64,000 nucleotides of DNA from a virus. The notes beneath the pieces were generated by a model, which saw only the letters and a list, made by a program, of their open reading frames with translations, was not told where the DNA came from and did no database searches. The position numbers were made by a program, and so were the translations under genes. Position 1 is the first letter of the stretch; each line of letters begins with the position of its first letter. Positions 10,158-62,318 of this stretch are shown here, piece after piece. Where the stretch lies: IMG/VR virus record IMGVR_UViG_3300005080_000005. The stretch is one strand, 5' to 3'.

Positions 10158-10379
10158 ATGAAAATCGACCCAAACACCAAAGCTTTTAAACTTGTTAAAT
10201 TCCAGGCAAATTATCATGTGTATCAGGTTGCGGCTAATGGTGCAACATTGCAACTTTTGAATAACAATCAAACCCCTGTTGTCGTTGGTTCTGTTATTGA
10301 ACTTCGCAACAGATTGGGGAGACTGTCTAGTAAAGGGTTGATTCCCTATGAGATCTTTAATCTCCCTATAGGATTCTAA
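10158..10379 (+). CDS. hypothetical protein
   Basis: ATG 10158 after cassette SD; in frame with ORF track 10089. Confidence 0.5.
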   Translation: MKIDPNTKAFKLVKFQANYHVYQVAANGATLQLLNNNQTPVVVGSVIELRNRLGRLSSKGLIPYEIFNLPIGF

Positions 10380-10392
10380 CGAGTATAAGGAA

Positions 10393-10416
10393 GGCCCTTC
10401 GGGGCCTTTTCTTTTT
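10393..10416 (+). terminator. rho-independent terminator
   Basis: GGCCC ttcg GGGCC + TTTTCTTTTT. Confidence 0.65.
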
Positions 10417-10734
10417 CTGAAAAATCAGAACTAAATACCTATATCGTTTTTTGAGATCTAAACTAATAAATGGTTTTTCTGATTTACAAACAGTAAATGT
10501 GAATATTGGAGACTGAAAGGATCAGGAGGTAAGGAGAAAAATGATGTAAAACATATTGAAAATATCAAATAAAATTTAAATATGTAGACAATATGCAAAT
10601 TAAAAATTATTTGAAAACTTAAACAGGATTAACTGATTAAGCCTATAAAGTTAGCCACAATATCCAGGAGGAGTCAAGACCCAACGGAAAATAAAATTAT
10701 TTAAAATAAGTTGGATTTTCAGGTTGCAAACAGG

Positions 10735-10800
10735 ATCCCCCTGACTATAATAGTAGTCAGAAGGTGAGGCAAGGGGCTGAACCGGTTGGTTTTCTTGGGG
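10735..10800 (+). promoter_or_regulatory. conserved -10/leader cassette (copy e, no upstream hairpin)
   Basis: TGACTATAAT then GTCAGAAGGTGAGGCAAGGGGCTGAACC. Confidence 0.45.
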
Positions 10801-10806
10801 TGATTT

Positions 10807-11238
10807 ATGTCTAAATGTGTTAATTCTATCCTTTCTTTTTCTTGCACCTGCTGTGGTCGCTCTGTAGTAAAACCTGCCTTTATTGGTGGAAAACCTTATG
10901 GTCAAGATTGTGCAAAGAAAATCAAAGGGGTTGCCTTTGGTAAAAGCAAGGCTGTGTTTGTAAAGGCTGAACAAGTATCCATTGACATGGAAAACTATTT
11001 GCCTTCTGCTGTATATGAAATTGAAGGTGTTCCCCAAAAATTTAAAATTACAGCCCCGTTCCCAGCCCACGTGATAGCACAAAAAGGTGGATGCATAGCG
11101 GATTACCTTCCACAAGATGCGCTGATGGTGATAAATCACGAAGGGAAACCGGTGTTTAAAAGTTTGTCTATCTCGTTGAAAGATAGCGCCTTGACCTATA
11201 TTGATAAGTATGGAAAACAGACAACTGTCCAAATCTAA
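10807..11238 (+). CDS. hypothetical protein (Cys-rich N-terminus)
   Basis: ORF downstream of cassette e, upstream of terminator 11254. Confidence 0.55.
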   Translation: MSKCVNSILSFSCTCCGRSVVKPAFIGGKPYGQDCAKKIKGVAFGKSKAVFVKAEQVSIDMENYLPSAVYEIEGVPQKFKITAPFPAHVIAQKGGCIADYLPQDALMVINHEGKPVFKSLSISLKDSALTYIDKYGKQTTVQI

Positions 11239-11253
11239 TAATCGCCTCAGAAT

Positions 11254-11279
11254 AAACCCCTGCAAAGGGGTTTTCTTTT
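11254..11279 (+). terminator. rho-independent terminator
   Basis: AAACCCCT gcaa AGGGGTTT + TCTTTTATC. Confidence 0.65.
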
Positions 11280-11667
11280 ATCTAAATTTTAGATGAGAAA
11301 AGTTATCATTTGCCTTTTGACAACCTATCACAAAATAATATAAAAAGCAAGCATGAAAATTTATGCAGCAAAAGTGACTAAAAACACACCTCATAGAATC
11401 GTCAATATTCAATAGTTCACAGGTAGCCAATACACTTGTATGGACTAGCCCTCCGAGCTAACAGAACGCAATGCATAGCGTTATACACCAAACGCCATCT
11501 AACCAAACCTAAAAAATTGCTACTTTGTAGGTAGTTAATGAGAACAGTTACCAACAAAGACAGACTGGAATATAAATAAATATAAAATAAAGGATGAGAC
11601 AAATAAAAATAAAATAACAGAATAGAATTATTACTTTTTATTTTCTTGAAGGGGCGAGCCTACATTT

Positions 11668-17899: not shown

Positions 17900-18898
17900 T
17901 CATTGTTTTATTTCTTCTAGACCACAACTATCCAGAAATTTATTGAGAACGAACAGTGAATCATTTTCAAAACACTCTGTTGACCAATCTACATAATGTT
18001 GGAAGTTTCTTTCTCGTAACTCGTTATGTAGTTCTTGTTCAAAATCATAAATCTCTTGATGTGTTGCTGTGAATATTCTGAGTTTGTGAATCTTTTTGAT
18101 TTTAGATATAGACTTTAAAGCATCAACTCTTTTATCAACAAGAAAAGACCTTCCAACTTTAATGAATTTACCATTGAAGTTCAAGATGTACAAGAAATCA
18201 GTTTCATCTTTTCTTTCGGGATAGTATCCATTACCATTTCCATCTTCCCTTAATCTTCTAATGGTTTCATCTTTAGCACAACCCCGACAACGTGTTCCTT
18301 TGTTTACAAAATTACCATATCTAACATTCTGTTTTCCATGAATTTTGCAGATGTACTCAAAACGAGAAGTGTTGTTTTTATATCCACCAACAAAACCAAC
18401 AACATCATAGCTCATTTCTTTACAAATATCAATACATTTTTGCAATGCTTCTTGTTCTGTTGGCCTATATACACCAGCACACTTTGAACAACCTTTGCCA
18501 CTATTAATAATATCATTAATACTTGCAGTCCACTTATGCCCATCTTTCAAACATTCAAGGTTTAGTTTGGTGTTTTGATTTTTAAATCCTTCAACAAAAC
18601 CATGAACAATAAACCTGTCTTTTGATGCTCTACGGGCTAATATTAAATATTGAAAGTCCCTCCATCTTACATTTTTCCCACAACCACAAGGTTTGATTTC
18701 TTTAACCAAACTACTTTTGACACTAACAAAATATCCATCATGGAATAATTCAGGATCTTTGGAACATTCCGTACAGGTAACTTTAAAAGTGGTATGCTTC
18801 GATTTCTCAATAATACCAATAACTTCTAGTTTTCCATCTTTACTTTTCCAACCTATGAAATCTTCAGCTTTTTGTTGTTTCTTTTTATTTTCAGTCAT
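17900..18898 (-). CDS. Zn-ribbon repeats + T5orf172 (GIY-YIG-like) putative homing endonuclease, paralog 2 (intact)
   Basis: 332 aa; three CxxC...CGC/CxKC zinc-ribbon-like repeats then FLYILNFNGKFIKVGRSF T5orf172/MUG113-like motif. Confidence 0.7.
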   Translation of the reverse strand: MTENKKKQQKAEDFIGWKSKDGKLEVIGIIEKSKHTTFKVTCTECSKDPELFHDGYFVSVKSSLVKEIKPCGCGKNVRWRDFQYLILARRASKDRFIVHGFVEGFKNQNTKLNLECLKDGHKWTASINDIINSGKGCSKCAGVYRPTEQEALQKCIDICKEMSYDVVGFVGGYKNNTSRFEYICKIHGKQNVRYGNFVNKGTRCRGCAKDETIRRLREDGNGNGYYPERKDETDFLYILNFNGKFIKVGRSFLVDKRVDALKSISKIKKIHKLRIFTATHQEIYDFEQELHNELRERNFQHYVDWSTECFENDSLFVLNKFLDSCGLEEIKQ

Positions 18899-22523: not shown

Positions 22524-23510
22524 TTAATCTTTATACACTAAATTCGCAATCTCTTTTAGTTTTGGGAGGTGCACTTTAAAGAAATAAATATCTTTGTTAA
22601 TTTCATCTACATCAAACCCAGAATTGTTCAAATTATAAATACTTGTTGGAAATCCTTCAAAAACCAACATTGTAGCTAGGTCATAAGCAGATGCTGCCTC
22701 TTCCTCTGTTTCATATCTAAAGATCCGTCCTCCATAGAGATTTCCCCCGGAACTGATGGTAAATCTTGCTGACCACTTATCTGCTGCTTTATCATAGCTA
22801 ACCCCTTTATACTTTGATGTTTTAGAAGTCTTTGTTTTTAACCTGTTCCTTGCTTGAATGTGCGGGCTGGCCCATCTACAATTTTCCTTACTGTAACTTA
22901 GGTTGCAATCTACTCTGTCCACCGTATAACCCTTACATGGGCATTTACCTACATCTTGATAAAATCTAAGGAAATTATCTTTCCACTCCTCCGGCATTGT
23001 AATACCGACAGCTCCATAATTTTTATAATCAGAGTTGTTTATATCATAGCACCGTTCTTTCATCTTTCTCCAAGAATTATACTCAGGCGTGTTTTTCATT
23101 CCGTGATAATTACTTTTAAAAGGTATTACCTCATTCTTCAAACAACCACAAGATTTTGTATGCCCAAAGTTCAGTCTTCCTATGGTTGTTATCGTACTTT
23201 TGCCACAATCACACTCACAGTACCATAAGGCATCCCCATTTTTTGATTTTTCTCCAGTCGGCATTACTGCTATTAGTTTTGTAAACCTCTCACCACTAAT
23301 GTCTTTTGTCTTACGTTTTCTTGGGATACATCCGCAAGACCTTGGCCCTCTTTTGTTTGTTACTTCATTTTTGGTTTTAAATGTTGTGTTGCCACAATCA
23401 CATTGTAATTCATATATTTTTCTGTTATACTTGTCTACTTTATCTGTTATTGCTATAACAGTCAGTTTACCGTGTTTTGTGTTAATAAAATTATCCAACT
23501 TCGCCTCCAA
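22524..23510 (-). CDS. HNH homing endonuclease with AP2 DNA-binding domain
   Basis: Multiple CxC/CGC clusters; C-terminal YKGVSYDKAADKWSARF...ETEEEAASAYD is an AP2-type domain. Confidence 0.7.
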   Translation of the reverse strand: MEAKLDNFINTKHGKLTVIAITDKVDKYNRKIYELQCDCGNTTFKTKNEVTNKRGPRSCGCIPRKRKTKDISGERFTKLIAVMPTGEKSKNGDALWYCECDCGKSTITTIGRLNFGHTKSCGCLKNEVIPFKSNYHGMKNTPEYNSWRKMKERCYDINNSDYKNYGAVGITMPEEWKDNFLRFYQDVGKCPCKGYTVDRVDCNLSYSKENCRWASPHIQARNRLKTKTSKTSKYKGVSYDKAADKWSARFTISSGGNLYGGRIFRYETEEEAASAYDLATMLVFEGFPTSIYNLNNSGFDVDEINKDIYFFKVHLPKLKEIANLVYKD

Positions 23511-55361: not shown

Positions 55362-55543
55362 TGAAAACAAGTAGGAACCTTGAGCAGCTACTTGAACACT
55401 CACTCTCTTGTTTCTGTTACAAGGCTGATAAGATTGTTGTTCATGATCTAAATATCAAACAAGATAAAGCTATATTGTCTCTTGAAGTGTGGTATAAAGA
55501 TAAAGGACAACAGAAGATTAAATTTAAAAATCTTATTCTGTAA
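55361..55543 (+). CDS. hypothetical protein
   Basis: ORF, TAATG overlap. Confidence 0.45.
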   Translation: MKTSRNLEQLLEHSLSCFCYKADKIVVHDLNIKQDKAILSLEVWYKDKGQQKIKFKNLIL

Positions 55544-55614
55544 AAACATAGTTTGTTAACACATTGAAAATTTTATAAAAATATGTTAATATAAGTTTGT
55601 CAAGTAACTATTAA

Positions 55615-55650
55615 CCCTATTTTGCTCTTGTGGCAGAATGGGGTTTTATC
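55615..55650 (+). terminator. rho-independent terminator
   Basis: CCCTATTTTGC tcttgtg GCAGAATGGGG (11 bp incl. 2 G-U) + TTTTATC. Confidence 0.65.
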
Positions 55651-55951
55651 AGTTAGTGCGTAAAACCATGCTCTTTAGGGCATGGATGCAAGCATTAATA
55701 GTCTAACCAATCAAAAGGATCTGTTGGGAACTCATATGGATCAGGTTGGATTATAGAGCCAAATAAGGAAATACTGTTAGAAATAGAATCATTAGAGGCA
55801 GCGCAAAACATAAGTGCTAGATTAGAATTGTATAACGGATTGTTAGATTTACCATTATAATAAAATACTTGTACAATAAAGTTCTTGAATAATTAAAAAT
55901 TTTATGATAAAGTTAAATCATATACTAATTTATTAACAAGAACTATTAATT

Positions 55952-56296
55952 ATGGAACAACAAAACAACAAACCGTCTGGTAAGGAAAACCTCAGCAAGG
56001 AAGCTGTTCTTTTATCTCACGAAGAAGTAGAATATTTCAAGGCTGTCCCAACAAACCTTCATGTCGTATACTCCAAGATATGTAACAGTGTTTTGATTGA
56101 AAAAACGGATACTGTTTTCACAAATGAAGATGAAGCAACCACTTTTTCTGAAACATTAGCAACAACTGTTAGTGGTCTTCCCTTGAGTTTCTGGGAATAT
56201 TCGTTCAATGATATCGCTGTCAAGTATGCTATTAATGATTTAGAAAAAGTGGGATTGGTACATCGCATTACTATTTATCCTAAAAATAATTCTTGA
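55952..56296 (+). CDS. hypothetical protein
   Basis: ORF 114 aa. Confidence 0.5.
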   Translation: MEQQNNKPSGKENLSKEAVLLSHEEVEYFKAVPTNLHVVYSKICNSVLIEKTDTVFTNEDEATTFSETLATTVSGLPLSFWEYSFNDIAVKYAINDLEKVGLVHRITIYPKNNS

Positions 56297-56629
56297 CAAG
56301 TTTAATTTTAAATGTTAATATTATTTATAGATTATAAAATAAGTTTAGGCTCACAGAGCCGCAAGTGATGTACAATGATCATGAGTCCTCCTTCTCTAGT
56401 TGTACATCCACCCTATCCTCTCCTTGCTCTTTGTCCACGCAATGTGGTTTGATTTTATATTAGGTAGCATCAAAGATGCCGAGACATTAATGTCTCAATG
56501 TATTATGTAGCGCAGGCAACAGGGACTCCGTTGCGGTGGTTGCCAATATTTACGCAGCGACGAGTGAGACCTACATGATATACAATCTATTTCTATTTTC
56601 TCTCATAATCTCCTCTCTTTAATCATACT

Positions 56630-56665
56630 GGGCCACATCTTCGGGTGTTGGCCCTTTTCTTTTAT
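56630..56665 (+). terminator. rho-independent terminator with UUCG tetraloop
   Basis: GGGCCACATC ttcg GGTGTTGGCCC + TTTTCTTTTATC. Confidence 0.65.
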
Positions 56666-56677
56666 CTAAAATTTTTC

Positions 56678-56706
56678 TTGACACACATGACAATCTATCT
56701 TACAAT
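56678..56706 (+). promoter_or_regulatory. near-consensus sigma70 promoter
   Basis: TTGACA - 17 nt - TACAAT. Confidence 0.6.
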
Positions 56707-56853
56707 ACACAAAGGCTCATAGAATCGTTTCTAAGCAATTTTATAGCATTAGTGCTACGATGGTATTGACAAGCTAACAGAATTGATTTAAAGTGCCATA
56801 GGAGCTGTTTAAACAAGCTTAGATAGTTACACAACTAATAGAGGAGAAACGTA

Positions 56854-57081
56854 ATGGAAACTAAAGATATTTATGAATGTTATTCGCAAGGATTTGTATT
56901 CTCAGACAGAGAACTAAAAATGGCAATCAAGCACTACAAAAACCTCTCCAATATCCTGATGGCTAGTGGTAGAGAGTTCAAATTTGCAGCAGATGCTGCG
57001 TTTAGTGTTTACCAGAACCTCTATCAATACGGTATTGCACGAGAACTTTTTACATATGAAACAAAGGAGTATAAACTGTGA
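56854..57081 (+). CDS. hypothetical protein
   Basis: ORF after AGAGGAGAAACGTA SD. Confidence 0.5.
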   Translation: METKDIYECYSQGFVFSDRELKMAIKHYKNLSNILMASGREFKFAADAAFSVYQNLYQYGIARELFTYETKEYKL

Positions 57082-57338
57082 AACTTCAAATTAAAACAAA
57101 ATTTGAAAAGAGTAGCAAAATTACTAAACTTGCAACATTATCAACAGAAACAAGATGGGGTGCAAAAGTTACCAGATACAGTTATCTTGAAGATGTTACT
57201 TGGACTGTCTATGCTGGGCAATTAGTAATGAAATCAGGAAAATCTTTCCTGTTTAAAGACGCTTTACATGAGGCAACTACCATGTTAGAGTCATGTATGA
57301 ACGACCCATTGTTTAAATATTTAGGAGAAAACAAATGA
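57078..57338 (+). CDS. hypothetical protein
   Basis: ORF overlapping previous stop. Confidence 0.5.
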   Translation: MKLQIKTKFEKSSKITKLATLSTETRWGAKVTRYSYLEDVTWTVYAGQLVMKSGKSFLFKDALHEATTMLESCMNDPLFKYLGENK

Positions 57339-57544
57339 ATAACCTCAACAATTTTGAACTACACGAAGAAGCAATGAACCTATCTGTTGTACAAACTTCA
57401 TATAAACTTGCAAAAATGTACTTGCAAGAAAAACAGGAACTAGAAGAACTGAAAGAAAAGTATGAAAACTTGAATCAGATATTTGAAGATTACCTTGCTG
57501 CCCATAAAGTTATCCAAGCCGAGTTGGAGAGACTTCAATTGTAA
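57335..57544 (+). CDS. coiled-coil hypothetical protein
   Basis: ORF. Confidence 0.5.
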   Translation: MNNLNNFELHEEAMNLSVVQTSYKLAKMYLQEKQELEELKEKYENLNQIFEDYLAAHKVIQAELERLQL

Positions 57545-57767
57545 CATAGTATTGATACGACCAAATCTCAACCTGAATTGGGGTGTTAACTGAGATTAAA
57601 CATTATCAGACTCTGAATATCAATTTTAAAGGCTACCAGAAGCTCCCTACTGGATAGTTTGAGAATAGGAGTATGTTGGTAGCCTGAACTACCGAGAATT
57701 GATTATAGAGCTTTCTATGAATGTTTTAAGGTTTGATAGGTTATTTGAGATATTTAAATAAAATCTA

Positions 57768-57796
57768 TTGACTTTTTATTTATTACATTATATACT
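57768..57796 (+). promoter_or_regulatory. sigma70-like promoter
   Basis: TTGACT - 17 nt - TATACT, 31 nt upstream of TAGGAGACTAAAATG. Confidence 0.55.
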
Positions 57797-57827
57797 TAAT
57801 ACGTAACATAGTAAATAGGAGACTAAA

Positions 57828-58094
57828 ATGGAAATGTACAAAGAAAATGACATGAGCCTTGGTGAATTTATTCGTGAGGTCTATATGTCGGAAGAAGGTG
57901 GTAAAATGACTATGCAACAAATTGCAGATGCTTGTGGTGTAACTCAGGCTACGATTAGTCGTCTTATCAACAACAAATCTGACTTGACTATTGAGATGGC
58001 ATTCAAGCTTGAAAAAGGTCTTGGCCGTAGTGCTCAGTCTTGGATGAACTTGTGGGTTAACTATAAAATTTGGGAGTACAAACACAAAAGTTGA
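57828..58094 (+). CDS. XRE/HigA-like helix-turn-helix DNA-binding protein
   Basis: MTMQQIADACGVTQATISRLINNKSDLTIEMAFKLEKGLGRSAQSWMNLWVNY follows HigA antitoxin-type HTH consensus. Confidence 0.6.
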   Translation: MEMYKENDMSLGEFIREVYMSEEGGKMTMQQIADACGVTQATISRLINNKSDLTIEMAFKLEKGLGRSAQSWMNLWVNYKIWEYKHKS

Positions 58095-58202
58095 AACTAT
58101 GGTTATTACGCTCTAGCCCTTGTGTACCAAGGCTTCCAGACAGATAAAAATTTCAAGAGTGGATGATAATGGTTATGGTTAGTAGTTAGTTGGTTAATTG
58201 GA

Positions 58203-59513
58203 GTGTGTATGGTTGAGAGAGAGTATCGAGATTATTTATTTAGGAGTAATTATAAACCTAAATATTTAAATAATATAAAAGATAAACTTAGAGATTTATA
58301 TATAAAAGAATATAACGTTAAGTCTTTCAGTCAAATAACTGATGGTTTTTATTGTGTGTTGTACAATATTGTTCGTGCATACAATTATGGTTGTGTTGGT
58401 TTATATGTTTCTAGGGATTACAATTTTTATAAGACAGATGTGATATTTAATGGTAAAGTTATGAATTTTCGTATTGGTTACGAATCTATAACTAAAACAT
58501 TAGATTTTCTTGAAAAATATAATTTCATAGAATCAAGTAAGGGATTTTACATATCCGATAAACATAAGAAAACTGGGCATATCACATTCAAACCAGCACT
58601 TATCGAATTGATTGAAGAGAATGTGGACAAGTCTAAACTAAAGTTTAAATTATTAGAAAACGTAGTAGTATTAAGAGATGTCAAGGGTGAAAACTTACCT
58701 TTTCGCAGAACAAAGGAGATTCGTAGCATGATTGATTTGATTAACTCTTATAATGCCTTTATGGAAGGTGTAGAAGTGACTTTTCAAGGTAAGAGGTTGA
58801 ATACACAAGTACATCGCTCTTTCTCCCGCAGTTCCTTCGATAAAGGTGGGAGGTACTATAGTAGCGGTCGTGGTATTCAACAGTTAAGTAAACAAGATAG
58901 AGAGTACGTATTAATTGATGGTGAATTTACGATAGAGATGGATTTCAAAGCACTCCACCCTTCTATTCTTTATGAGAAAGAAGGTATCGTACTCGATGAA
59001 AACTTTGATGTTTATGGCGGAGAAGGTGCGGCATATACTTTCCAAGTAGTTCCAGATATTGTGCTGAAACGTAGGGAAACAGATCGTAAGTATAATCCTG
59101 TTCGTAACTTCCTGAAGAAAACACTGTTGGTGATGATTAACGGTAGGTCAAGTGGACAGGTTGCTGGTAAAATGCAACAACTGTTACTAGAAGATAGACA
59201 GAAGCCAGAAGATGAACAAGATTTTGCAGGATTGGTTGACGTAGACCCATACAATGCAATTGAGTTTCTTAGTGATCACAATGAAATGATTAGTAAATAC
59301 TTCCATAGTGATGCTGGTATTGACTTGCAAAGACTAGACTCTGATATTATTAGTATGGTGATTGAATATTGTGTTCAAAGGGAGATCCCTATTTTGACTG
59401 TACATGATAGTGTAATTGTTCCACAAAGTCATGTTGGCGAGGTGTTGTCAGTAATGAAAGCATCTTATAAGAGTGTAGTTGGTAGTGATTTTAATTGTAG
59501 GATAGAGGTATGA
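58203..59513 (+). CDS. miniature family-A (Pol I / T7-RNAP-like) polymerase-domain protein
   Basis: Ordered motifs with Pol I-like spacing: T/DxxGR (FDKGGRYYSSGRGIQQLS vs Pol I TATGRLSSTDPNLQNIP), motif A (YVLIDGEFTIEMDFKALHPS vs YVIVSADYSQIELRIMAHLS), motif B (RNFLKKTLLVMINGRS = RxxxKx7[Y->N]G), motif C (ILTVHDSVIV, cf. T7 RNAP ALIHDSFGT). Confidence 0.55.
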   Translation: MCMVEREYRDYLFRSNYKPKYLNNIKDKLRDLYIKEYNVKSFSQITDGFYCVLYNIVRAYNYGCVGLYVSRDYNFYKTDVIFNGKVMNFRIGYESITKTLDFLEKYNFIESSKGFYISDKHKKTGHITFKPALIELIEENVDKSKLKFKLLENVVVLRDVKGENLPFRRTKEIRSMIDLINSYNAFMEGVEVTFQGKRLNTQVHRSFSRSSFDKGGRYYSSGRGIQQLSKQDREYVLIDGEFTIEMDFKALHPSILYEKEGIVLDENFDVYGGEGAAYTFQVVPDIVLKRRETDRKYNPVRNFLKKTLLVMINGRSSGQVAGKMQQLLLEDRQKPEDEQDFAGLVDVDPYNAIEFLSDHNEMISKYFHSDAGIDLQRLDSDIISMVIEYCVQREIPILTVHDSVIVPQSHVGEVLSVMKASYKSVVGSDFNCRIEV

Positions 59514-59516
59514 ATT

Positions 59517-59945
59517 ATGTCAATATCATGTTATTCTAAAAATTGTGTAAGAGTAAAACATCTTCCTTCAGGACACGAAGTTATTTGCAATAGTTCAAGG
59601 TACATGCACAAAAACAAGGACTTAGGTGTAAAAACAATCAGAGCTAGGCTTCATGCTGATGAAATTGGGTTAGAACGCCCTTCTATTTGTGAAGATACAG
59701 AAGGAACTATTTGCCCAATCTGTGAGAAAGGGATTCTAAAACAAGTTCATGAATACTTGCATTATGAGTACAAAAATGGTAACTTCTATGAAAATCCACT
59801 AAGTAATGAGTACGAAGTTCTTAGTATTTACTTAGTTTGTGAAGGTGGAGAAGGTGCTTGTGGTAGTGAACAAATTGATGGTTATTGTCTGAGTTATAAT
59901 AAAGAGACAATGGAAATGCTTTATAAAATGAAGGAAAAATCGTGA
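59517..59945 (+). CDS. Cys-rich (multi zinc-ribbon) protein
   Basis: CYSKNC...C...CPICEKG...CEGGEGACGS...C. Confidence 0.5.
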   Translation: MSISCYSKNCVRVKHLPSGHEVICNSSRYMHKNKDLGVKTIRARLHADEIGLERPSICEDTEGTICPICEKGILKQVHEYLHYEYKNGNFYENPLSNEYEVLSIYLVCEGGEGACGSEQIDGYCLSYNKETMEMLYKMKEKS

Positions 59946-60409
59946 GGTGTTGGACAGGAGAACAAATAACTCAACTTGAACCAAACTATGTTTTTGTCTT
60001 CGGTTCTAATCCTGAAGGAAGGCATGGAGCTGGTGCAGCAAAGGCAGCATTGAAGTTTGGTGCTAAGTATGGCATTGGCCGTGGATTACAAGGACAAACT
60101 TATGCTCTTGTGACAAAGAACCTTAAAGAATGTTTTGTTGAGAAACTTGCAAATGGCACTACTAAAACGCACCATAAAGTAGGCTATCGTAGTATCAGTA
60201 AAGAAGATTTGATTGAAAATATCAAAGAGTTTTATGAGTGTGCTGAACAAAATAAACATCTTAAATTCTTTGTGGTGTACAAAGCTGATAGCAAAAACCT
60301 TAACGGATATTCTTCAAAAGAGCTGTATGAAATGTTGACAACACATAAGATCCCTGATAATGTGTACCTACATTCAAGTTTTAGAGTATTTGATGAGGAA
60401 ATAAAATGA
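59942..60409 (+). CDS. Rossmann-like hypothetical protein (Gly-rich FVFGSNPEGRHGAGAAKAA motif)
   Basis: ORF 155 aa; Gly-rich loop suggests nucleotide binding; family not resolved from sequence. Confidence 0.45.
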   Translation: MRCWTGEQITQLEPNYVFVFGSNPEGRHGAGAAKAALKFGAKYGIGRGLQGQTYALVTKNLKECFVEKLANGTTKTHHKVGYRSISKEDLIENIKEFYECAEQNKHLKFFVVYKADSKNLNGYSSKELYEMLTTHKIPDNVYLHSSFRVFDEEIK

Positions 60410-60645
60410 ATCGCAGCAAAGGTAATTATATCCAAGGAGTAAAATATGCCGAAAGCTTACTGGAAAAATCTTTAGAAGCAGGAGAAGACCCTTCTGAAAG
60501 ATTTCGTCAAATACTTCGTACAGAGAGTGAACCTTCATATTACTATGACGGAAAAGATTATTGTGATGGATTTTATGACTATGTTCATTATTATCTTGAT
60601 AACAAAGAATTGATTGTTAATCATTTTATAGGGGAATATAAATGA
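60406..60645 (+). CDS. hypothetical protein
   Basis: ORF. Confidence 0.45.
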   Translation: MNRSKGNYIQGVKYAESLLEKSLEAGEDPSERFRQILRTESEPSYYYDGKDYCDGFYDYVHYYLDNKELIVNHFIGEYK

Positions 60646-62054: not shown

Positions 62055-62137
62055 GTTGGATTCCGTTAGTGGCGATACGACTGGTTTTGTAATCCAGCAG
62101 GGAAACCTCATCGTGAGTTCGAGTCTCACATCCAACA
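62055..62137 (+). tRNA. tRNA-like gene, type II (long variable arm), non-canonical anticodon arm (anticodon UGU if 7-nt loop)
   Basis: Acceptor GTTGGAT/ATCCAAC, D-stem CGT/ACG with GG loop, T-arm GTGAG-TTCGAGT-CTCAC, 15-nt variable arm with AGG/CCT hairpin; anticodon stem only 4 bp with a U-U closing pair; no encoded CCA. Confidence 0.4.
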
Positions 62138-62159
62138 CTAAGTATTTTAAAGATTTACA

Positions 62160-62234
62160 GGGCCTATGGCAGTCTGCGAATGCAGCCAGCTCATAACTGG
62201 TTCAAGGATGGTTGGATTCCATCTAGGCCCACCA
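62160..62234 (+). tRNA. tRNA-Met (CAU)
   Basis: Acceptor GGGCCTA/TAGGCCC, anticodon arm GCCAG-CTCATAA-CTGGT, T-arm GATGG-TTGGATT-CCATC, discriminator A + encoded CCA. Confidence 0.7.
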
Positions 62235-62243
62235 AATTAACTT

Positions 62244-62318
62244 GCAGGTATGATGTAATGGATAGCATATCTTTCTTCTAAAAAGATTGTCAGCGTTCAA
62301 ATCGCTGTACCTGTGCCA
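62244..62318 (+). tRNA. tRNA-Arg (UCU)
   Basis: Acceptor GCAGGTA/TACCTGT, D-arm ATGT-AATGGATA-GCAT, anticodon arm TCTTT-CTTCTAA-AAAGA, T-arm CAGCG-TTCAAAT-CGCTG, G + encoded CCA. Confidence 0.8.

Follow-up and report, generated by a model that had tools for sequence, protein, structure and literature searches.

The cassette described here is carried by an Aeromonas phage, and the stretch of DNA that was analysed (hereafter the window) is 64,000 nt long. An earlier note on this DNA had reported a promoter followed by an HTH gene, a polymerase-like gene and a Cys-rich gene, and inspection of the open reading frames (ORFs) and the sequence bore out the positions of all of them. The gap of 3 nt between the polymerase-like and Cys-rich genes was also correct, and the HTH and polymerase-like genes are separated by 108 nt. 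The features of the locus are as follows:

57615–57745, + strand: conserved non-coding element, left border of the variable cassette, present in 16 of 16 Plateaulakevirus records
57768–57796, + strand: candidate sigma-70-like promoter, TTGACT-17-TATACT, matching 10 of 12 consensus positions
57828–58094, + strand: gene for a HigA-family (XRE-type) HTH protein of 88 aa (HTH_3, TIGR02607; assigned to PHROG 1381)
58095–58202, + strand: HTH-polymerase spacer, with a hairpin, TGGTTA repeats and a recombination junction
58203–59513, + strand: polymerase-like gene, 436 aa in the ORF list
58203–58697, + strand: N-terminal domain of the polymerase-like protein (approximately residues 1–165), helical with a PadR-like winged helix
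58698–59513, + strand: minimal family-A polymerase domain (thumb, palm and fingers) of the TV-Pol type
59517–59945, + strand: gene for a Cys-rich protein of 142 aa, with an RF-1-domain-like N-terminal fragment and a C-terminal zinc-ribbon-like beta domain

The start codon of the polymerase-like gene is more probably the ATG at 58209, which lies behind a GGAG sequence (58200–58203) and would give a protein of 434 aa. Neither a second TV-Pol copy nor a helicase was found within the window.

The element at 57615–57745 is unannotated. It shows 78–92% identity among all 16 Plateaulakevirus records, occurs in a second copy in some, and is kept regardless of which polymerase allele comes next. A structured stretch with inverted repeats had been proposed upstream of the genes, and the 9-bp repeat AGGCTACCA/TGGTAGCCT was indeed found at 57630–57638 and 57677–57685. 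RNA folding of this stretch gave a z-score of -3.0. None of the 40 predicted pairs of the element showed compensatory changes, just one-sided changes of the G-U type, and an Rfam search of 55400–60500 returned no match. The element may act as a structured RNA or as a binding site for a protein.

The promoter was present as claimed, with the -35 box (TTGACT) at 57768–57773 and the -10 box (TATACT) at 57791–57796, separated by a 17-nt spacer. By itself this match says little because such matches are abundant in the AT-rich DNA here (51 promoter-type matches in 7.5 kb, compared with 31 +/- 6.6 expected). The core TTGACT..TATACT..CGTAACAT..TAGGAG has been retained with the HTH gene in four HTH-carrying loci (the window, 4L372D, L030 and L032), and the sequence directly to its left diverges completely among them. 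The predicted promoter probably serves the HTH gene and the polymerase gene too. An inverted repeat around the -35 box (TAAATAAAA/TTTTATTTA) was considered as a candidate operator for the HTH protein and was rejected, as neither L030 nor L032 has kept it.

The assignment of the first gene as a HigA-like HTH gene was well supported by both Pfam (HTH_3, 1e-11) and NCBIfam (TIGR02607, "HigA family antitoxin", 64.6 bits with a cutoff of 47.7). The protein is likely a transcriptional regulator of the cassette. A HigA-like HTH gene was also detected immediately before a TV-Pol-like gene in the 2017 isolates of ICP1 and in four other Vibrio phages (eugene 12A10, K460, qdvp001 and CoeS_P1), where identity to the window is ~33% for the HTH protein and ~25% for the polymerase. 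Because this arrangement recurs, it is plausible that the HTH and TV-Pol-like genes form a two-gene unit. At 11 other homolog loci, no Pfam HTH was found among the ORFs upstream (six downstream ORFs were scanned alongside), and most of the polymerase homologs examined lack a Pfam-detectable HTH upstream. A search for related loci with the HTH alignment returned 4L372D only, and a search of the literature on HigA in ICP1 found nothing relevant.

The spacer between the two genes contains a bulged hairpin (~58113–58134) that lacks a U-tract, four TGGTTA repeats (at 58100, 58170, 58176 and 58191) and a recombination junction with PAc-type cassettes at ~58164. No intrinsic terminator was predicted between the HTH and polymerase genes. 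A 14-mer of this spacer, CTCTAGCCCTTGTG, recurs in the corresponding spacer in Rheinheimera phage Barba19A. As a general signal it was rejected: of 120 viral contigs that contain it, only those of the Barba type have an adjoining TV-Pol gene.

It had also been suggested that the HTH protein and the polymerase may form an addiction pair, with the former as antitoxin. The protein does resemble HigA antitoxins and XRE phage regulators in having an HTH_3 fold of 80–100 aa and in reaching the TIGR02607 cutoff. However, it differs from HigA antitoxins in lacking an adjacent HigB: no + strand ORF of at least 40 aa that might encode a HigB/RelE-type toxin is present in the 283 nt upstream (57545–57827), and the downstream gene is the polymerase. 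In phage PAc, a 92%-identical polymerase allele lies behind an unrelated 62-aa gene and the HTH gene is absent, so that sister phages carry another gene in its place. Considering also the 108-nt gap and the junction within the spacer, a toxin-antitoxin reading of the two genes is unlikely.

The idea of a three-gene module was not supported either. In relatives, a methyltransferase gene (L032) or genes for a CapR endonuclease and a methyltransferase (L030) lie between the polymerase and Cys-rich genes, or the Cys-rich gene is reduced to a remnant of 62 aa (2L372D) or replaced by dam (phiA009); in addition, the PAc polymerase allele occurs without the HTH gene. Thus, when co-occurrence across related phages is considered, the pairing of HTH and polymerase recurs but the Cys-rich gene is not tied to the polymerase. 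The 142-aa gene is an unrelated backbone gene outside the cassette, a mere neighbour. Its description as a multi-zinc-ribbon protein was an overcall, since the protein has one clear ribbon (CxxC...Cx6C) and six Cys residues that are invariant among 13 homologs (C5, C66, C69, C108, C115 and C124). Residues 9–49 resemble the part of the RF-1 domain just past the GGQ loop (E ~1e-4, below cutoffs). Unlike class-I release factors and ArfB, the protein lacks the GGQ motif of peptidyl-tRNA hydrolysis; it begins with MSISCYSKNC. Its AF2 model was poor (pLDDT 56.9).

Sequence-only searches with the 436-aa protein (Pfam, NCBIfam, PADLOC and phmmer against PDB) gave chance-level matches, such as Skp1 and RecX. 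The description of the middle gene as polymerase-like was nevertheless confirmed by structure: a high-confidence AF2 model was obtained, its structural matches belong to family A, and Foldseek placed DNA polymerases at the top. The model has a palm of the family-A/T7-RNAP type, fingers inserted after the first palm strand, and a helical thumb. No exonuclease or polymerase domain was detected by Pfam in the 434–436 aa, and the structural matches span polymerase domains only.

The key residues are R205 in the beta-hairpin that precedes the palm, D247 in motif A, R301xxxK305..N313 in motif B, D379, and H401-D402-S403 in motif C. The metal-binding residues D247 and D402 show no variation among 26 homologs or among the 13 phage alleles that were compared. 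R301 and K305, which both lie in helix 299–313 of the model, are likewise invariant. R205 lies in strand 203–207, which is paired with strand 216–220 in the model; it is invariant in alignment A1, but in a separate MAFFT alignment this column contains K, M, E, Q or C in some phage alleles, most of which have a basic neighbour. An invariant histidine (H252) stands where DNA polymerases have their steric-gate Glu, and motif B has N313 where T7 RNAP has the Tyr responsible for ribose selection (Y639). Motif C (VHDSVIV) resembles that of T7 RNAP (IHDSFGT), unlike that of T7 DNAP (VHDEIQV). The allele of ICP1-2017 and K460 has a steric-gate Glu of the Pol I type, a motif-B Tyr and a DE motif C.

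With regard to the N-terminal domain, positions 40–156 of the family profile matched a PadR-like regulator (PDB 1xma, E 0.0025), and the secondary structure of the AF2 model is helix-helix-wing. This modelled winged helix is presumed to bind DNA. It probably represents the "TV-PolN" domain (Iyer 2008; PMC2579912), to which it is a putative match, although that work described the domain only as "all-helical".

The 436-aa protein fits the TV-Pol family of minimal family-A polymerases as a new member. TV-Pols were proposed in 2008 as primase-polymerases of mobile elements (Iyer, Abhiman & Aravind, Biol Direct 3:39; PMC2579912). Features shared with TV-Pols that have TV-PolN include a length of 400–600 aa, a minimal thumb, palm and fingers, an additional N-terminal domain, occurrence in phages, the hairpin Arg, two catalytic Asp residues, RxxxK in the first fingers helix, the lack of a nuclease domain, and homologs located beside a D5-like helicase, resolvase, integrase or transposase. 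The family comprises 11,104 clusters at 50% identity and has no Pfam model. Among the bacterial homologs, one gene lies 12 nt after a D5_N/DUF5906 helicase gene (P0017), one adjoins a resolvase and an integrase (P0021), two have integrases nearby (P0023 and P0025), and one adjoins a DDE transposase (P0026). Genes of this kind are not present beside the window member, which differs from other TV-Pols in residing in a large lytic phage, in a cassette lacking a recombinase and a helicase, and in being paired with a HigA-like HTH gene. In phage qdvp001, the gene that follows the TV-Pol-like gene downstream encodes a DNA helicase. A TV-Pol element inside phage Ma-LMM01 had already been noted (PMC2579912); our family HMM gave no match in 1–50 kb or 110–160 kb of that genome (100 of 162 kb). 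The "putative primase" MAP_134 of Ma-LMM01 was tried as a named TV-Pol relative, but hhalign was negative and it is apparently unrelated. Sputnik V13 was absent from the top 50 structural matches in BFVD. A role as plasmid replicon is unlikely because only 4 of 72,556 plasmid records contain a family match.

The sole TV-Pol characterised so far is CcPol of SCCmec, which together with MP is a primase-polymerase (PMC7581432) and is the only member with demonstrated de novo priming of DNA synthesis. Similar to the window protein, CcPol (Bebel et al. 2020 eLife; "PolA-SSB primases", Rice lab 2023) is a family-A polymerase without an exonuclease, and its gene, carried by a mobile element, is directly followed by a small gene, as is the window polymerase gene. 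However, CcPol is recognisably Pol I-like, annotated as A-family and nearest to the CHEAP subfamily, whereas the window protein has no Pfam polymerase match; and CcPol retains a partial exonuclease remnant where the window protein has a winged helix. MP, the partner of CcPol, is an SSB with an OB fold and is followed by a helicase, in contrast to the RF-1-like/zinc-ribbon protein here. Assignment to the PolA-SSB type was rejected, as this downstream protein shows no OB barrel (in a low-confidence AF2 model) and is separable, and the window has no helicase. The protein also departs from the T7-like single-subunit RNAPs (including mitochondrial RNAP). At 434 aa it is less than half the length of T7 RNAP (883 aa), it has no promoter-recognition N-terminal domain and no specificity loop, and Asn replaces Tyr639; motif C (HDS) alone agrees.

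A TV-Pol-like gene was found at the same position in all 8 Plateaulakevirus-like loci compared. Three alleles occupy this position; they are 27–30% identical to one another, all retain the catalytic residues, and they sit in genomes that are otherwise ~90% identical. Initiator/origin modules swap likewise in mosaic phages, as in the replication modules of lambdoid phages. In ICP1 isolates, TV-Pol alleles are located at 53–61 kb and alternative cassettes are found between gp97 and gp103; both there and in the Vibrio phages, the switch from tail or neck genes comes shortly before the cassette. Some phage genomes hold 2–3 TV-Pol copies, and homing endonuclease genes are inserted nearby in L030. 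The theta origin of ICP1 lies in the same genome region; it was mapped at ~1-kb resolution with a strain offset of maybe several kb, and has never been tied to TV-Pol. Cumulative GC skew in the window reaches its minimum at ~54 kb, 4 kb before the cassette, but this is not independent evidence because the switch in skew coincides with a change in gene orientation.

The reading that we tentatively favour, to which we give nearly an even chance, is that an HTH-regulated cassette promoter controls a primase-polymerase which binds DNA and assists in starting phage replication. It draws on the fold and the intact active-site motifs, the gene neighbourhoods of the family, the activity of CcPol, the HTH-polymerase linkage, the conserved promoter and the exchange of alleles at this position, whereas DNA binding, priming, involvement in replication and control by the HTH protein are inferred. 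The locus would then be an accessory cassette of two genes, situated at a hot-spot for recombination in the early region of the phage. The HTH gene would be transcribed from its own sigma-70-type promoter, which the HTH protein may repress or tune. The enzyme would represent the smallest known form of the family-A/T7-like RNAP fold, devoid of an exonuclease and fused to an N-terminal winged helix. This winged helix might dock it on a specific site of the phage DNA, where the polymerase domain could start a short strand de novo or extend one; the primer would then be passed to the main replisome, and phage DNA replication would be initiated or re-started. Divergent alleles and extra copies would also fit a selfish or arms-race gene. 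The near absence of the family from plasmids also weighs against this reading. Moreover, an additional primase is not obviously needed, because a gp4-type primase-helicase and Pol I are already present in ICP1-like phages (PMC9040626).

An alternative, which we consider unlikely, is that TV-Pol is the remnant or active core of a small mobile element that is spread by recombination and brings the phage little or no benefit. The bacterial relatives within integrated mobile elements with a resolvase, integrase or transposase, and the TV-Pol element of Ma-LMM01 (Iyer 2008; PMC2579912), are consistent with such a selfish cassette, and so are the exchange of 27–30% identical alleles at one locus, the alternative cassettes of ICP1 between gp97 and gp103, the genomes with 2–3 copies and the homing endonuclease genes of L030. 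However, none of the phage copies examined has a recombinase beside it. The location does not change across the genus, and each genome examined retains one copy whose catalytic residues are intact, implying purifying selection on activity.

It is quite improbable, in our view, that the protein is instead a specialised RNA-making enzyme, a tiny T7-like RNAP acting on a particular template, for instance the element at 57615–57745 or a transcript from the origin. The T7 RNAP-like motif C, the invariant H252 in place of the steric-gate Glu, and the statement that ICP1 encodes no RNAP could be taken to favour this. Yet CcPol uses dNTPs (PMC7581432), Foldseek ranks DNA polymerases first, Y639 of T7 RNAP corresponds to Asn, and neither a promoter-specificity loop nor a T7-type N-terminal domain is present. 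Furthermore, an RNA primer made at an origin would merge this possibility with the primase-polymerase reading.

A role for the polymerase in phage-host or phage-satellite warfare (anti-defence, competitor exclusion or damage-tolerant synthesis), with the HTH protein as switch or antitoxin, is very unlikely: the HigA antitoxin match, the high allelic diversity in an early, hyper-variable region, and the variation of ICP1 isolates at this locus as at known anti-PLE loci would agree with it, but PADLOC gave no match for the polymerase, the same allele occurs in PAc without the HTH gene, there is a 108-nt gap and no HigB-like partner, most family members have no detectable upstream HTH, and no toxin is known to have a family-A polymerase fold.

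A more specific form of the primase-polymerase reading is doubtful at present. In large lytic phages of the ICP1/Plateaulakevirus type, the regulator and the winged-helix TV-Pol may constitute an exchangeable "initiation cassette" that acts at a cassette-linked site to prime theta replication de novo, with alleles differing in chemistry. Within this proposal, the partly T7 RNAP-like H252/N313/HDS residues suggest that the window allele might make RNA primers, and the Glu/Tyr/DE residues of ICP1-2017/K460 suggest DNA primers.

The window polymerase belongs to a family that is already known but barely characterised. Among the relatives of DNA polymerase I and T7 RNA polymerase, TV-Pols are the smallest, and only the atypical CcPol has ever been assayed. 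What is new is that the family is very large and that, in a clade of lytic phages to which ICP1 belongs, it keeps to one position at which alleles are exchanged. For annotation, PHROG 4756 and its relatives could be named "TV-Pol-like minimal family-A polymerase" in place of "hypothetical protein". Because ICP1 is a genetically tractable model with its theta origin in the same region, the role of the enzyme, the nature of its product (RNA or DNA) and the definition of the origin are directly testable. If true, the initiation cassette would represent a third kind of phage primase beside DnaG and AEP, namely an origin-specific initiator.

The window belongs to a Plateaulakevirus phage of Aeromonas; its nearest record is phage 4L372D, with 91% identity across the region. 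The minus-strand portion of the window carries genes for ribonucleotide reductases, ligases, and endonucleases of the CapR and AP2 types (CapR-domain gene, 17900–18898; AP2-domain gene, 22524–23510), and small genes of early type fill a plus-strand block from about 54 kb onward. The features considered, which include all those that the earlier note had named, are:

57615–57745, plus strand: core of a conserved non-coding element
57768–57796, plus strand: putative promoter TTGACT-17-TATACT, located by sequence match
57828–58094, plus strand: HigA-family HTH gene (88-aa ORF)
58203–59513, plus strand: polymerase-like gene (436-aa ORF), 108 nt past the HTH ORF
beginning 3 nt past the polymerase ORF, plus strand: Cys-rich gene (142-aa ORF)

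For the polymerase-like gene, translation more likely starts at the ATG at 58209, behind GGAG; the product would then have 434 aa, the length listed in UniProt for 4L372D. A gene at 59942–60409 overlaps the last 4 nt of the Cys-rich gene, and its product is assigned to PHROG 2072 and to the "phage non-structural proteins" of the A1S_2505 family (NF049995, 2.5e-27). All relatives keep this gene, the backbone that bounds the variable region on the right. Three clustered tRNA genes (Thr-TGT, Met-CAT, and Arg-TCT) lie at 62055–62318.

The 436-aa protein had no match in Pfam, NCBIfam or PADLOC and belongs to PHROG 4756, which is labelled "unknown". Its AlphaFold2 model is confident (pLDDT 91.5), and the protein is a family-A polymerase with palm, fingers and thumb and no exonuclease, which bears out the name mini-polymerase that the earlier note gave it. 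Multiple alignment of 26 homologs revealed invariant residues R205, G216-R217, E245-x-D247, H252, R301-xxx-K305, N313, D379-S380, and H401-D402-S403. Residues 1 to ~165 are similar to winged-helix regulators of the PadR type (PDB 1xma, E 0.0025), and this domain, fused N-terminally to the minimal polymerase, probably binds DNA.

Minimal family-A polymerases of 400–600 aa were defined as the TV-Pol family by Iyer, Abhiman and Aravind in 2008, with a helical thumb, a hairpin Arg, two palm Asp residues, and RxxxK in the fingers as hallmarks (PMC2579912). They occur in bacteria, phages, and Sputnik, either standalone, fused to a D5-like helicase, or with an extra N-terminal domain, and their gene neighbors include D5 helicases, resolvases, integrases or transposases (PMC2579912). 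The window protein shows every one of these structural hallmarks. The bacterial homologs that we looked up match the published gene contexts: one (P0017) lies 12 nt downstream of a D5_N/DUF5906 helicase gene, another (P0021) adjoins resolvase and integrase genes, two (P0023 and P0025) have integrases nearby, and one (P0026) adjoins a DDE transposase gene. The assignment rests on features and context because the comparisons gave no direct link by sequence to any named member. Judged by these features and the predicted fold, the window polymerase adds a phage-borne member to a known, almost uncharacterized family, and nothing at the locus is categorically new. The family is very large, comprising 11,104 representatives at E <= 1e-3, and is nearly absent from plasmids. 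Only one member has been assayed: the SCCmec protein CcPol, which together with MP, its OB-fold partner, works as a primase-polymerase on dNTPs (PMC7581432). CcPol is much nearer to canonical Pol I than the window protein is.

Catalytic residues are retained in every polymerase allele compared; polymerase activity is therefore under selection. At the sugar-discriminating positions, the window protein departs from Pol I-type enzymes: the steric-gate Glu of T7 DNAP is replaced by H252, Y530 of T7 DNAP (Y639 of T7 RNAP) corresponds to N313, and motif C reads HDS as in T7 RNAP, not HDE. In contrast, the allele shared by ICP1 2017_Dha_X (L019:3803–5107) and Vibrio phage K460 (L155:3391–4683) has Pol I-like active-site residues: motif A reads D..FE, motif B contains Tyr, and motif C is YDE or FDE, carrying the Asp-Glu of Pol I-type HDE. 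Most other alleles have H, N, and HDS at these positions. These differences hint that the alleles may differ in sugar selectivity.

We compared eight Plateaulakevirus-like loci (the window, 4L372D, PAc, 2L372D, phiA009, and relatives L030, L031, and L032). The order is common to all: conserved non-coding element, promoter, small gene, ~100-nt spacer, and TV-Pol gene; the parts exchange independently of one another. Three polymerase alleles, only 27–30% identical to each other, were distinguished: A (window, 4L372D, PAc, L030, and L032), B (2L372D and phiA009), and C (L031). The small gene encodes the HigA-like HTH protein in the window, 4L372D, L030, and L032, and an unrelated 61–63-aa protein in PAc, 2L372D, phiA009, and L031. 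PAc combines a 62-aa gene with allele A, and its homology to the window starts at 58164, within the spacer.

In ICP1 2017-type isolates, a HigA-like HTH gene (33% identical) lies ~106 nt upstream of the TV-Pol-like gene. Vibrio phages eugene 12A10, K460, qdvp001, and CoeS_P1 have the same arrangement, and in each the downstream gene matches the family HMM (1e-52 to 1e-77). By these matches, HTH and polymerase are linked outside Plateaulakevirus too; no Pfam-detectable HTH was found upstream of TV-Pol in 11 other homolog loci. ICP1 isolates (L018 vs L019) carry alternative cassettes in the gp97–gp103 interval, one with ORF98 (HTH_37), ORF99, ORF100 (555-aa TV-Pol-like), and ORF101/102, the other with gp97.1, a 97-aa HigA-like protein, and a 434-aa TV-Pol-like protein; the two TV-Pol-like proteins are 28% identical. 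Several Vibrio phages have 2–3 TV-Pol-like copies, and Aeromonas phage 2L372X has a second, divergent paralog (L029:3468–4733, record 10377–11642; 30% identical) elsewhere in its genome, with a 54-aa gene before it. No second copy was found in the window.

The HigA-family, XRE-type identity suggested earlier for the first gene was confirmed (HTH_3, 1e-11; TIGR02607, 64.6 bits, cutoff 47.7). The proposed promoter is likewise present. It matches 10 of 12 consensus positions, and such matches are not rare in this DNA (51 observed vs 31 expected in 7.5 kb); however, the promoter core accompanies the HTH gene in four loci, although the sequence to its left is unrelated among them. Most likely, the HTH protein regulates this accompanying promoter. 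Comparison of promoter regions turned up one candidate operator, an imperfect TTACAT-N12-ACGTAA that overlaps the -10 element; no other conserved palindrome of this kind was found. An exact 11-nt repeat, GTAACATAGTA, occurs at 57541–57551, overlapping the stop codon of an upstream 69-aa gene, and at 57803–57813, 3' of the -10 element but 5' of the HTH ribosome-binding site; this second copy is kept in the other HTH modules.

Just 5' of the polymerase start, TGGTTA occurs four times within 97 nt (58100–58196), three of them within 27 nt; the window has 63 matches vs 46 expected. These repeats may mark an iteron-like site, or they may just be 5' UTR sequence. The spacer also holds a 14-mer, CTCTAGCCCTTGTG (58111–58124), identical to one in Rheinheimera phage Barba19A (L021:3837–3850), so that two unrelated phage groups carry it 5' of TV-Pol. 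Elsewhere it shows no enrichment beside TV-Pol genes, and the sharing may be chance.

The unannotated element at 57615–57745 is present in 16/16 Plateaulakevirus records with 78–92% identity, whichever cassette follows, and has a second copy in phiA009, phiA019, PhAER-3, and PhAER-4. It is a real conserved feature of the backbone, not of the cassette. The earlier note had called the stretch around it structured. The predicted RNA fold of the element scores better than shuffles (z -3.0), but across nine sequences no predicted pair shows a compensatory change, and the structure draws support from one-sided G-U-type substitutions only; Rfam gave no match. Among these sequences, PhAER-3 breaks one predicted helix and long unpaired stretches are invariant.

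The Cys-rich gene does not belong to a three-gene module as the earlier note had proposed, since it is not co-conserved; by the note's own test, the independent behavior of the genes counts against both the module and the addiction pair. It directly follows allele A in three genomes. A methyltransferase gene intervenes in L032, and a CapR-domain, homing-endonuclease-like gene plus a split N6/N4 methyltransferase intervene in the metagenomic relative L030 (2139–3119); 2L372D retains a 62-aa remnant, and phiA009 has dam instead. Homologs are confined to this phage group. Of the multiple zinc ribbons proposed, one (CxxC...Cx6C) accounts for the only six invariant Cys residues. The predicted structure is poor; residues 9–49 resemble the RF-1 domain directly past the GGQ loop, with GGQ itself absent. 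At 59511–59519, the polymerase TGA stop and the next ATG are in frame, one codon apart. Readthrough would fuse the two proteins, but this arrangement before an RF-1-like protein without GGQ is probably a coincidence.

The evidence points to the winged-helix TV-Pol as a site-directed primase-polymerase that would help start phage replication: it has a winged-helix domain, its family occurs in helicase and recombinase contexts, and its alleles exchange as cassettes, the way initiator and origin modules usually do. In qdvp001, a DNA helicase gene directly follows the TV-Pol-like gene, and in ICP1 and the Vibrio phages named above the cassette lies just past tail or neck genes; both observations lend circumstantial support, as does the cumulative GC-skew minimum of the window at ~54 kb, although gene orientation confounds the latter. 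The sole biochemical precedent is the primase activity of CcPol (PMC7581432); against an extra primase, ICP1-like phages already encode a gp4-type primase-helicase and Pol I (PMC9040626). A selfish cassette is a rival reading of the exchanging parts. A dedicated RNA polymerase is another, and H252, N313, and HDS set against the Glu, Tyr, and (Y/F)DE alleles give no choice between RNA and DNA product. A conflict gene is the third; its toxin-antitoxin version, the addiction pair of the earlier note, is unlikely, as small gene and polymerase swap independently, for example in PAc. This cassette is a worthwhile experimental target because a HigA-like partner recurs in it, its alleles swap, and its position is close to the ICP1 theta origin.
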